A stretch of 64,000 bases of DNA from Candidatus Heimdallarchaeota archaeon (GTDB lineage: Archaea; Asgardarchaeota; Heimdallarchaeia; Heimdallarchaeales; Heimdallarchaeaceae). Shown here in pieces: positions 1 through 51,254 of this stretch. The position numbers and the translations under genes are program-made. The stretch lies in assembly GCA_018238545.1 (NCBI GenBank), contig JABCTC010000008.1:1-64000 (forward strand). Direction: 5' to 3'. Numbering within the stretch: position 1 is the first letter of the stretch; the number at the start of each line of letters is the position of its first letter. Below the pieces are notes generated by a model. The model had not been told where the DNA came from. It saw only the letters and a list, made by a program, of their open reading frames with translations, and did no database searches.

Positions 1-972
1 CATTAACAATTTTATGGGTAATCTTCCTTTCTTTTTTCTTTTAAATGGTAATGGAACAACTTTTGCTACTGGGAGACCTTTAACTAACTGAGGGACACTC
101 TGCATGAAGTGGTCAAAGAGTGTGAAAACAATTATCAACCTGACAGCTGAAAAGAGTTTTCGGGAAGGCTTCCCAAGAGTTTTTGCTAGTTGTTCTGCTA
201 GTGTTTTGAGACTTTTCCAACGAGAAAGTTGAGGGCTGTTGGTCCACGAAGTGAGAAAGGGGACAACGACAGCTTGTTCGTTCTTCAATAGTTTAAGTTT
301 GGCTAGAAAGGCTTGTTGCCTCTTAGTCACTTGGGGAGTAGTAGCAAAAGCATTGTTGTAAAAGAACAGTGCGTCATCTATCGCTTGTACTATCTCTTGT
401 TGTGTTGTAGAGGTAAGGAGAGAGTTGTAATGAAAGTTATTAGAGGTATACGTTTTGTTTTCTCTCTTTCTCCAATATCCATCTGCTTGTTGTCTAGCGC
501 TGGTTAAGAGATTGATAACGTACCTTCTTTTCAGTTTCCAATAGTTCCCTAAACTGCTTTCAGTATACGGTGATCTCCCAAAAATCATCCATTCTACAAG
601 TTGTTGAGGATTTTTCAAGAGAAAGTTTAGTAAAGCCTGTACTTTCTGTTCCTTCTCTCTTTTTCCTTTGATTGCTATATGCAACCAATGGAAAGCACTT
701 TCTGCAATATTAGGACTCTTCCCCACTTCTTTACATAATTGACGGGTGAAGAACCCTTCCTTAGGATTGGATTTGTATAATGTTTCTGCTTTCTTTACAA
801 TTTGTGGAGAAAGGAGGAGCAGTTGTTGTTCTTCTAGCTTTCTTATCCTTCGGTTGATTTCTTCTCGTTGGTGCTGGTCTACACATTTTAGGGCAACCTG
901 ATAGCTTCGCATCACCGTCTTTGAGTGAGGGTTGACAGCTACTTGTACTTTCTTTGTTGCTTGTGAGACCAT
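1..972 (-). CDS. N-terminal 324 aa of a large TnpB-like protein (partial; not in ORF track)
   Basis: Hand translation from ATG 972 (or GTG 981): MVSQATKKVQVAVNPHSKTVMRSYQVALK...VVPLPFKRKKKGRLPIKLLM, open to base 1; directly downstream of IS607 tnpA; no RuvC motif in the visible part. Confidence 0.7.
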   Translation of the reverse strand, partial: MVSQATKKVQVAVNPHSKTVMRSYQVALKCVDQHQREEINRRIRKLEEQQLLLLSPQIVKKAETLYKSNPKEGFFTRQLCKEVGKSPNIAESAFHWLHIAIKGKREKEQKVQALLNFLLKNPQQLVEWMIFGRSPYTESSLGNYWKLKRRYVINLLTSARQQADGYWRKRENKTYTSNNFHYNSLLTSTTQQEIVQAIDDALFFYNNAFATTPQVTKRQQAFLAKLKLLKNEQAVVVPFLTSWTNSPQLSRWKSLKTLAEQLAKTLGKPSRKLFSAVRLIIVFTLFDHFMQSVPQLVKGLPVAKVVPLPFKRKKKGRLPIKLLM

Positions 973-1020
973 CGTCTTCACCTACTTATCCACAGAATGG
1001 TATATAAACGCGAAGAAAAG

Positions 1021-1611
1021 TCAGTTAGGAGGAGCTTTCCCTCTCCTTTGTCTATGTAATCTTCCCGCAAAGGAGGTTATCAAGGCGATCATATCTCCTA
1101 CCAATCGTTCCTCCTTCGAAGTACTTTGTTGATTATGCATAACTACGATGCTTGTTGAAAATGCTTGACAGTAGTGACTGATTACTTTTGTTCCAAACCT
1201 TGCCAGTCTATCTTCATAGGTACAGATAACGGCAAAAGGGCTAGTTGTTGCCACTTCATTCAATAGTCTCTGTAACCCTTTTCGTTGTTCGTTCATCCCT
1301 GAAGCAATATCAGCAAATATTTTCTCCATCTTCCACCCTTTCTGTTTGGCAAACTTTTGCAGTTTTTCTTTCTGGTTCTGTAATTCTTTTCGTTGCTTCG
1401 CTGCACTTACTCTCGCATATCCAAGCACTATTCTCTTTTGTTTCCTCCCCCTTCTCTCTTTTTCTCCTTTCATCGCTTGCACAAGTTTATATCTTCTATG
1501 TCCTCCCCTTGTTCTTCGCTCTGGTAAGTACTTCTCTTCCTTTTCCCATCGTCTTAACGTACTAGCTGACACTCCTTGTAACTTTGCTGCTATCCCTATT
1601 CTCACTAACAT
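1021..1611 (-). CDS. tnpA: IS607-family serine recombinase TnpA (MerR-like HTH + resolvase domain)
   Basis: GVSASTLRRWEKE..RTRGGHRRY HTH; GYARVS catalytic Ser; DIASG; YEDRLARFG; ITSFAGRLH. Confidence 0.95.
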   Translation of the reverse strand: MLVRIGIAAKLQGVSASTLRRWEKEEKYLPERRTRGGHRRYKLVQAMKGEKERRGRKQKRIVLGYARVSAAKQRKELQNQKEKLQKFAKQKGWKMEKIFADIASGMNEQRKGLQRLLNEVATTSPFAVICTYEDRLARFGTKVISHYCQAFSTSIVVMHNQQSTSKEERLVGDMIALITSFAGRLHRQRRGKAPPN

Positions 1612-1868
1612 ATACTCTCTTTATTATTTTTGCTCAAAATTATTCCCCTCCTTCCCCCTCATAACAAGATTGGGTAAGATTTTACTCATCAGTTGACTAC
1701 GGTTAATGGGATTGGTATCCTTAGAATTTTGTAAGGTTAACAAAAAAGATGGCATCCCTCTTCCCCTTACTGTATTCGAGAGATTTCTGCATCGAAATGA
1801 ATGAAACTAGTTAGTAAAGCCTTGAAATTCTGTTGTTTTGAGAGAAGATTTAAATTAAACTGGTATCG

Positions 1869-49300: not shown

Positions 49301-49410
49301 AAAATCTTTTGTATTAAGAACGCACGTTATGAAACTTGGTCAAACTTGCCAGAGGCGGTCTAACCGTCGTTTAAGTGGGTCCCCTCACGTGCGATGAGGG
49401 GAAGAGGATC
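49301..49410 (-). ncRNA. Putative TnpB omegaRNA (3' part of scaffold plus flanking guide)
   Basis: CCCCTCA-TCGCACG-TGAGGGG hairpin whose loop is complementary to CGTGCG at the element terminus. Confidence 0.6.
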
Positions 49411-50119
49411 ATAGAGGAGGAAGGAGAGTACCAGGAAGGGAAGCAATGTTTTGGGCAGCATTACTATGTGTGTTAACCTTCTGCCCACACTTCTTACAGG
49501 GAGCAACATCATATTGGTTTCGACCACGAACTAGTGTTCCTCCACAGCCATAGTGCAGAGTGCTGGTGTGATAAGGAAGAACTGATTCTAATTGCACATC
49601 ATAGCCTAGCTCTTGAGAAGCTAACCTTACTGCTTTCTTGTAGATGAACAAACTGTCAGGCATGGTGTAAATAGCTTTTGCTAAAGCTCCTTTAGTACCA
49701 GTAGGGTCAACTGTGAGTTGCTCAACCTTCAATTTTTTACACTGTTTTTTCATCATAACAGCAGCAAGAAAGTGGGGAAGGAGACGAGTAAGTTCGCGAA
49801 GAAGTCTCGACCGTCGAGTATATAGCCTGTTGAGCTCACCTAGTAACTTACAACAACCATGAGCATCACCTGCTTTACGCTTGCTAAGCAACCCACGATG
49901 GAGTTCGGGGAGAACTTTATCACTAAGATGAGTATAGTTTTTAGCCAAGTGCAGCAAATCAGGAGGGAGAGAAAGAGGAATATTAAATGCTACCATGTGT
50001 TTCCCTAAACGGTTGATATCTATACCTAGAATAGCTTGTTTCCTTCCAGCTATCTGGGGGAGATAGGTGTGGAGAAGGGTAGAGGAGTGGAAACGAGCAA
50101 TTTTTCTTCTTTTTCTCAT
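49409..50119 (-). CDS. Truncated TnpB (RuvC + zinc finger only)
   Basis: ILGIDIN, KVEQL, PYHTSTLHYGC..CKKC, NTHSNAAQNIA. Confidence 0.8.
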   Translation of the reverse strand: MRKRRKIARFHSSTLLHTYLPQIAGRKQAILGIDINRLGKHMVAFNIPLSLPPDLLHLAKNYTHLSDKVLPELHRGLLSKRKAGDAHGCCKLLGELNRLYTRRSRLLRELTRLLPHFLAAVMMKKQCKKLKVEQLTVDPTGTKGALAKAIYTMPDSLFIYKKAVRLASQELGYDVQLESVLPYHTSTLHYGCGGTLVRGRNQYDVAPCKKCGQKVNTHSNAAQNIASLPGTLLPPL

Positions 50120-50181
50120 CTTCTTAGGATATTTGATGATACTCCTTACATTCTTGCTACCACCCCAATTCTTACTAATAT
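50095..50181 (-). pseudogene. tnpA 5' remnant
   Basis: Reads ILVRIGVVARM*GVSSNILRR*EKEEKLL vs MLVRIGIAAKLQGVSASTLRRWEKEEKYL. Confidence 0.85.
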
Positions 50182-50354
50182 GTTTTCTTTTCTCACTATT
50201 TGGTCAAAAGTATATCTCACCTCTCCTCCTACGGCAAGATTGGATAGGTTTTTGTTCTTCAGTAGATTAAGGTTGTTAATAAAAATAAAATAAAAATAGT
50301 TTGAGAGGTAGAATTTGTACCAACTCCTCTCGTTTTAGAATGGTAAAAGTGAAA

Positions 50355-51254
50355 CTATTGTTGTTCACTCATGAATTTTTTAAGACGATCTAATTCCTTC
50401 AACATTTCTTTGCGTAGTGCTGCAATCGAAGTGCTCTTTGCGAACAAATCTCCTTCTCCTCCTTCTGGAGTTGAAGATGGTGCAATTGCTGGTGCAGGTG
50501 GTTTAGGTGTTGGCATGCTAGGTGCTGGAATTGAGGGTGTCACTGTTCCAGACTTAGGTGCAGTTGGCATTGGTGGTGATGGAATTGCAGTTGGGGGTGG
50601 AATTTTTCCAATTGATGGTGGCATTGGTGGGCTTGGTGGAGCTGCAGCTGCTGAAGTTGGCATTGGTGGTGTTGGAGGAGCTCCAGCGTCTTTCTTTTTC
50701 TTTTTCTCCTTCTTAACCTTCTTTTCCTTAGCAGGTTTAGTTGGAGGAGCTGGAGGAGCAGTTGTTGGAACAGCGGCAGGAGTTTCTATTTTTTCTTCTC
50801 CCTTAATTTTACTGAGATAGTCTCCTTGCATTTTCTTTAGTTCTTGCTCTAATTGCGATACTTCTGCTTCTCTTGCAGTTTTCTCAATTTCATCTTCAAT
50901 CTTCTTTACATCTGATGTGTATCTTACAGATAATCTTGTGAATATGCTTTCACCAATTTCTTTCTTTTTGTGAGCATCTGACAATGCACGTTGCGCTCCT
51001 AAAAATTTAGCTTTTTCAATTTTTAAAATTGCAATCCTCTCTGCTGGTGGGATATCAGACGGTACAGGTCGATCTGTTTCCAAGTCCATATCTAGCAAAG
51101 TTGGTGAGTCTCTTTTCTTGTAAACTTTTGTTGAAATGGCTACTGCTATAGCAGATAAAATGAAAAATACTATTATCAAATATATAAGCATCTTAAGACC
51201 TGAATCGGTCATGCTAGCTGGGGGTAAATCTCTGAACCAATCTGTAATTGTCAT
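50355..51254 (-). CDS. Single-pass membrane protein with coiled coil, Lys run, Pro-rich region and C-terminal amphipathic helix
   Basis: TM near the N-terminus; KEKKVKKEKKKKK; repeated PPxPPMP; PTAP; SIAALRKEMLKELDRLKK. Confidence 0.75.
   Translation of the reverse strand: MTITDWFRDLPPASMTDSGLKMLIYLIIVFFILSAIAVAISTKVYKKRDSPTLLDMDLETDRPVPSDIPPAERIAILKIEKAKFLGAQRALSDAHKKKEIGESIFTRLSVRYTSDVKKIEDEIEKTAREAEVSQLEQELKKMQGDYLSKIKGEEKIETPAAVPTTAPPAPPTKPAKEKKVKKEKKKKKDAGAPPTPPMPTSAAAAPPSPPMPPSIGKIPPPTAIPSPPMPTAPKSGTVTPSIPAPSMPTPKPPAPAIAPSSTPEGGEGDLFAKSTSIAALRKEMLKELDRLKKFMSEQQ

Follow-up and report, generated by a model that had tools for sequence, protein, structure and literature searches.

What is encoded behind the transposase gene at the very start of this archaeal contig, and what might its product do to DNA? 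The window, the 64,000-nucleotide stretch analysed here, opens with a minus-strand frame that runs from an ATG at 972 to position 1 without a stop over 324 codons (327 from an alternative GTG at 981); AGGTGA at 978..983 (minus strand), before the ATG, reads like a Shine-Dalgarno element and may act as one. The frame follows tnpA (1021..1611, minus strand), which encodes a 196-aa IS607 serine recombinase with a MerR-type HTH and a resolvase domain (NF033518, 174.5 bits; cut-off 110), and, as the original prediction had stated, it contains no RuvC-I motif. Base 1 of the window is also base 1 of contig C102, within a 3.63-Mb assembly; the gene runs off the contig end and is therefore absent from the ORF calls. 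Contig C63 overlaps window 1-126 at 125 of 126 nucleotides and completes an ORF of 635 aa from the ATG, a length shared by the intact copy on contig C106 (89% identical) and by other intact copies. The overlap of C63 with a second broken copy (C71) is just as good. We regard the C102-C63 join as likely, because an exchange of flanks between two copies, described below, is reciprocal, and the rest of the gene probably lies on C63 (L002:1-1151). The window holds the 5' half, codons 1-324 of 635 (1..972, minus strand), which is cut by the contig end and was completed from the overlap and the sister copies. The second WED segment, the RuvC residues D433/E532/H617, the HCCC zinc finger and the element's right end reside on another contig, probably C63. 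The RuvC-III His, the finger and the non-GG target all fall outside the 1-972 stretch.

The completed protein is an oversized TnpB of an IS607-type transposon in an Asgard (Heimdallarchaeaceae-type) host. Over its 635 aa it displays a WED strand, a helical REC region of ~275 aa, a WED domain, RuvC and a zinc finger, the WED-REC-WED-RuvC-zinc finger fold of TnpB (OMEGA). An AlphaFold model of the full-length C106 copy (pLDDT 87.5) places a strand at 19-29, helices at 33-305, a beta-rich block at 320-405 and an RNase H-type core at 429-626; the window stretch modelled alone reaches a pLDDT of 91.4. On the window's minus strand, AlphaFold puts the first WED strand (residues 19-29) at 886-918 and the enlarged, all-helical REC lobe (residues ~33-305, ~275 aa) at 58..876. 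Fold searches with the full model, including Foldseek, returned TnpB and Cas12 chains throughout, led by AsCas12f and ISFba1 TnpB (both Z 13.2, ~350 residues aligned, rmsd 5-6 A), with lower scores for Fanzor2 (Z 10.6) and for Cas12g and Cas12k (near 10). Taken alone, the window half is less telling: a Pfam search of its 324 codons matched no family, and the REC lobe by itself, compared with 48,161 chains, scored Z 6.1 at best and found common helical arrangements only, for which we do not call it a new fold. These observations are what might be said for a passenger gene unrelated to TnpB, a reading that deserves practically no credence and is refuted by the WED, RuvC and zinc finger found in TnpB order in the completed protein; the proposed leftward extension and translation thus led to RuvC and finger motifs. 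The expectation of a protein beyond 530 aa with an expanded helical REC-like region was likewise borne out (RuvC-I begins at residue 433), as was its premise that about 200 aa follow RuvC-I in the related element at 49.4-50.1 kb, where RuvC-I sits at residue 34 of a 236-aa ORF. TnpBs typically measure 300-450 aa in total (PMC10691335), and the protein scores 14.5 bits against the IS607_TnpB model, below its cut-off of 350.

Is the active site of such a protein intact? The catalytic positions are D433, E532 and H617, a D-E-H set instead of the canonical D-E-D, and in an alignment H617 falls on the RuvC-III Asp of CnCas12f1. Residues were counted over representatives of 50%-identity clusters: 105 of 105 have Asp at position 433; at position 532, 105 of 123 have Glu and 17 Asp (one or the other in 122); and at position 617, 115 of 121 have His, five Gln and one Asp. 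The RuvC-I motif reads D-I/V-N, E532 lies 56 residues before H588, and the HCCC finger (H588, C591, C607, C610) is conserved in the family as H/C588, C591, C607 and C610. D433, N435, E532 and H617 are kept down to a mean identity of ~22%. Judged from these alignments, H617 is a family trait and not decay; TldRs have decayed catalytic sites with varied losses (PMC10705468). Pairwise dN/dS values of 0.05-0.24, alike in REC, WED and RuvC (REC about 0.08-0.18), indicate purifying selection across all domains. The 1-972 frame is no chance ORF, because these ratios come with 123 homologous clusters, found by word search, and 78 GTDB loci, nearly all from Heimdallarchaeota.

A profile search extended the family to 279 representatives, some of 1,000-1,784 aa, and all named records are Asgard (Heimdall, Hodarchaeales, Hermod, Odin-labelled, Loki and Thor). 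Of 200 genomes sampled from the phylum, 33 have profile matches, as do 15 of 15 of the host genus, with none in two single-contig genomes of the host's family. No member was found on viral contigs, plasmids gave weak matches to ordinary TnpBs only, and a word search for family proteins above 1,456 aa returned none, which is weak evidence. Members only ~30% identical still lie behind an IS607 tnpA and have the same end motifs, and several giant members have a tnpA or a tnpA remnant nearby. Six giants (P0145, P0161, P0184, P0187, P0221 and P0267; L103 and L105-L109), of 1,014-1,784 aa, carry unrecognised N-terminal parts; some have tnpA and none has a CRISPR array. One sub-branch of giants has a D-D-H triad. 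In two deep members (L150:5410-10235 and L151:35-5611), a cargo gene for a DinG-like helicase or a HerA-like ATPase sits between tnpA and tnpB. Our tree is a quick version without outgroup, from which we claim neither a root nor an order of events. A literature search combining Asgard or Heimdall with TnpB or IS607 retrieved the 2023 survey at most, and no paper in the literature searched describes this Heimdall TnpB family.

What defines the element that carries this gene? The assembly contains about 25 full or deleted copies, and only two of them, in the window and on C71, have a stop-free full-length tnpA; the remaining ones lack tnpA, are internally deleted or are miniatures of ~400 bp. 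A full element would measure about 2.73 kb. In the window, the left end spans 1612..1703 (minus strand), with the host-derived target motif ACCGT at 1699-1703, which is the predicted TAM and holds the crossover core. The target 5'-RCYGT precedes the element at 24 of 25 left ends in the genome (15 ACCGT, seven ACTGT, two GCCGT and one ACCTT), and YGT is present at 27 of 27 matched right ends, beyond which conservation stops; the crossover core is within YGT. At three empty sites, namely a hydrolase-like gene in the relatives G016 and G002, a metal-ATPase gene in relatives and a paralogous site inside the same genome, the five target bases are host DNA kept once, with no target duplication. The layout is that of IS607, with tnpB behind tnpA and neither terminal inverted repeats nor a target duplication. 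A GG core dinucleotide, reported for most IS607 members (PMC13565253), is absent from the junctions, and we class the element as an IS607-type variant.

Insertion has split host genes. The last ~34 codons of an alpha/beta-hydrolase-like gene, named from its sequence only, lie at 1699..1804 (plus strand), and its 5' part adjoins the right end of the C106 copy; the rejoined frame is open. The flanks are swapped: the sequence to the left of the window copy matches up with that to the right of the C106 copy, and the C106 copy's own left side with the right flank on C63. Hydrolase-like and heavy-metal ATPase genes are both split in this manner, their halves located at different copies (window 1699-1804; C106 15.7-17.8 kb; C63 1-1.2 kb). 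The swap reflects recombination between copies or mis-assembly, and the evidence favours a real event, short of proving it, because the two copies share no identical run >65 nt within tnpB. A second, internally deleted copy of 954 bp occupies 49320..50273 (minus strand), with the target ACCTT at its left end (50269-50273), a tnpA stub and a RuvC-only ORF (49409-50119); the gene for a membrane-anchored proline-rich protein adjoins it (50355-51254, minus strand). Non-coding miniatures of ~400 bp, on C21, C43, C90 and about eight contig ends, possess both ends and the whole guide scaffold, and their interior, itself conserved, resembles neither tnpA nor tnpB.

The right end appears to encode a guide RNA. 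Within the last 83-90 nt of the element, a hairpin carries a loop complementary to the seven terminal bases. In the 33 sequences compared, 97% of the cells in this pseudoknot are paired and five of its seven pairs have changed on both sides; the whole 13-pair structure has 47 cells with two-sided changes against 14 in shuffles and at most three in slid controls, a count inflated by relatedness of the sequences. We base the scaffold structure on this covariation, because minimum-free-energy folding by itself outdoes shuffled sequences by a modest margin only (z -1.1 to -2.4). In the second copy, the guide-RNA (omegaRNA) scaffold maps to 49320..49403 (minus strand), with a central hairpin and another hairpin whose loop forms the pseudoknot with the last 7 nt, and the predicted guide to 49304-49319. 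Miniatures retain sequence from the first hairpin onward, a content which suggests that the scaffold's 5' limit is this hairpin, and the structured right end has a sharp scaffold/guide boundary. Rfam holds no family for this RNA. The ISFba1 scaffold has 187 nt (PMC11061315), and processed TnpB RNAs measure 79-466 nt (PMC10278001). The scaffold end, TGCGT, is a near-match to the target ACCGT, and a similar near-match separates self from target in an IS607 element of C. botulinum (10.1101/2023.11.20.567912). Near 1645 of C25 (and with C90), the same assembly contains an empty paralogous site with the full target motif and a 15/16 match to the occupied copy's guide. The original prediction had proposed looking for an omegaRNA or a CRISPR array past the stop; the guide-RNA region is there, and an array was not found at ~150 loci. 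The array scan covered 142 + 9 family loci with flanks of 1.5-9 kb, including members of 1,000-1,800 aa, and its only match (L047) is a tandem repeat without spacers. Assembly-wide, the sole signal resembling an array is a 20-mer that occurs four times, spaced 76-78 nt apart, near 36.3 kb of C26 and not near any examined element copy.

Part of the family has parted from the transposase. Sister-branch loci, ~40% identical and on a separate side of the unrooted tree, have no tnpA and are often neighbours of tRNA-Cys, -Asn or -Ser genes. One is found on C68 of this genome (L007:2591-3928), and L055, L059-L063, L065-L068, L070-L072, L074, L078, L082 and L084 are others, mostly beside such tRNA genes. 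Their scaffold is followed by a 16-nt stretch that is conserved from one genome to the next and similar to the tRNA gene's antisense strand, the match beginning directly after an RCCRY-like motif. Guide and the host's own tRNA gene agree at 7-13 of 16 positions in twelve loci and at 15 in one, and most solo guides have 3-6 mismatches to that copy. The best tRNA allele from other genomes agrees at 12-15 of 16, mobile-branch guides scoring 8-11 against the same set, a comparison that is biased (best of several) and not used as proof. As sequence matches, the sister-branch guides independently support the 16-nt guide and the TAM prediction. L062 and L072 have a common guide with a 14/16 match to a nearby non-tRNA site. 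On viral contigs, the TAM-plus-guide pattern for tRNA-Cys guides gave three matches, none in a tRNA gene; we took them as chance, and the two inspected are GC-rich coding-like DNA. All 13 solo guides tested are antisense, across three tRNA types, and could pair with the transcript. Conceivably, then, the D-E-H centre is active on another substrate, as a nickase or on single-stranded DNA or RNA, and Altae-Tran et al. have suggested altered specificity of rearranged sites (PMC10691335). We deem this improbable: counted as independent events, the 13 loci reduce to about three, a TAM-like motif immediately precedes the tRNA matches, as for double-stranded DNA targeting, and the guide of a mobile copy is random flank DNA.

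How might the mobile element operate? We lean towards an autonomous IS607-type transposon whose TnpB, with His as the third ligand, cleaves the site left empty by excision. TnpA would insert the element after 5'-RCYGT without target duplication, as seen at the junctions, and, by analogy with other IS607 elements, would release it as a circle of double-stranded DNA, with the empty site restored. Transcription of the right end would yield the ~85-nt pseudoknotted scaffold plus ~16 nt of flanking DNA as guide, an RNA whose structure shows in the covariation and whose expression and processing we presume. The 635-aa TnpB would bind this RNA, read the TAM (predicted ACYGT) and pair the guide with the empty site. 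Its RuvC centre would then cut, with D433/E532/H617 as metal ligands, and repair from the occupied copy would restore the element, the weakest step of all. On the guide-target duplex, the enlarged REC lobe probably acts as a clamp and provides contacts for which other TnpBs rely on a larger RNA, and deleted copies and 400-bp miniatures would use TnpA and TnpB in trans. Cutting with His is the least certain element of the scheme, and we rate it somewhat above even. His ligands occur in RNase H-fold centres, as in Cas9 RuvC (H983) and in the DEDH centre of Argonaute. DNA cutting is favoured because D-E-H is strictly conserved, the transposase link has lasted and rearranged clades are predicted to be active (PMC10691335). 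Against it stand the loss of TnpB activity upon mutation of any D-E-D residue (PMC10705468), the persistence of the C25 empty site (15/16) and the one solo locus that matches its own tRNA gene at 15/16; the accessible part of a 59-orthologue screen names an active RuvC-II-rearranged TnpB and no active RuvC-III-rearranged one (PMC10278001).

The same observations could be accommodated by a protein that binds DNA under RNA guidance without cutting it and keeps its RuvC pocket for guide-RNA processing or for structure. Such a protein might block re-use of the empty site, restrain TnpA or silence, and the solo branch might regulate or shield tRNA genes. A missing third acidic residue and the tolerance of near-perfect self targets would be natural for it; TldRs provide a precedent (PMC10705468), and some TnpBs process RNA without showing TAM-dependent cleavage (PMC10278001). 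We consider this a genuine contender of clearly lower probability, as it leaves the conservation of D433, N435, E532 and H617 down to ~22% mean identity unaccounted for. Moreover, the guide of a mobile element changes with each jump, which would make a repressor without fixed target, and most solo guides mismatch their own genome.

Does the size of the protein place it on a path from TnpB toward compact Cas12, or link it to Fanzor2, as originally proposed? Its compact-Cas12 size, the REC expansion and members of up to 1,784 aa might be taken that way. We now find such a lineage very unlikely, and largely refuted: no CRISPR array accompanies the family at ~150 loci, the model is no closer to Cas12k, Cas12m or Cas12g than to TnpB or Cas12f, and at least one giant member retains the single hairpin-plus-pseudoknot right end. 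Pro-Fanzors are cyanobacterial, with a DPG motif and a Glu six residues before the zinc finger (PMC10711439). The present family has D-I-N, not DPG, and its Glu is not shifted, lying 56 residues ahead of the finger; the fold score against Fanzor2 is also lower (Z 10.6 vs 13.2). It has no bearing on the origin of Fanzors.

In its broadest form, our proposal would be an undescribed Asgard-wide clade of active D-E-H RNA-guided nucleases, growing from ~600 to ~1,800 aa with one short transposon-end guide RNA and never CRISPR arrays, on IS607 elements with a non-GG target, one branch having been domesticated with fixed tRNA-gene guides as homing enzymes or guards of mobile-element integration sites. 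Taken as a whole this is tentative, and we hold it for rather doubtful; Asp-to-His TnpBs and archaeal rearranged branches are already published (PMC10691335). The family offers a direct test case for whether a RuvC-III His supports cutting in the TnpB/Cas12 fold, an activity predicted in 2023 for which we found no test in the literature searched. Scaffold, guide boundary and TAM (ACYGT) can be read from genomes. The family also indicates that Cas12-like growth of the REC lobe is possible without a CRISPR array and that IS607 target chemistry extends beyond GG. In this Asgard genome, element copies have left genes split and flanks swapped.

How do these elements compare with known systems? With the CboIStron TnpA/TnpB (10.1101/2023.11.20.567912) and ISFba1 TnpB (PDB 8iaz, PMC11061315) they have in common the serine tnpA-tnpB layout and the TnpB fold; these IS607 systems likewise lack inverted repeats and target duplication, have a pseudoknotted right-end RNA and, as here, a left-end target motif partly echoed by the scaffold's last bases. 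They differ in protein length (~390 aa there, 635 aa with D-E-H and an HCCC finger here), in target (a GG crossover and a preference for G-rich TAMs there, PMC13565253 and 10.1101/2023.11.20.567912; RCYGT here) and, for ISFba1, in scaffold size (187 nt against a predicted ~85 nt). Cas12f, Cas12k, Cas12m, Cas12g, Cas12p and TranC are alike in fold, domain order, size and growth by helical REC additions, whereas no CRISPR array or cas genes were found at our loci, the guide is a single transposon-end one, and sequence similarity is confined to the C-terminal RuvC/zinc region (E 1e-7 at best). Fanzor2 and pro-Fanzors (PMC10711439) share the IS607 TnpA partner and the TnpB fold; unlike pro-Fanzors, the family is archaeal, has no DPG, keeps the Glu in its canonical place and has a RuvC-III His. 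The aCas1-associated Asgard TnpBs (Cas1H-Asgard-1/-2, PMC10691335) are likewise large and Asgard-hosted, whereas the few deep loci examined showed no Cas1-like neighbour or downstream motif, with the proviso that Pfam may miss aCas1; in two deep loci, the large genes that separate tnpA from tnpB, considered for such a link, are DinG-like and HerA-like. TldRs (PMC10705468) also miss a canonical acidic residue, and our immobile sister branch with conserved guides resembles them, but TldRs have lost two or more triad residues and any transposase link, whereas here a single residue is changed, to His (rarely Gln), the finger is intact and the window's branch is mobile. The Heimdall family may already figure in the published tree, perhaps among the archaeal RIIIr-6 or Ser-6 branches (PMC10691335). 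Another RuvC-III-rearranged branch, RIIIr-4 (Altae-Tran et al. 2023, PMC10691335), has the same RuvC-III Asp-to-His change and is predicted active; its members have no zinc finger and some are RHH/MazE-linked, whereas the Heimdall proteins retain the finger, are far longer and are linked to IS607.
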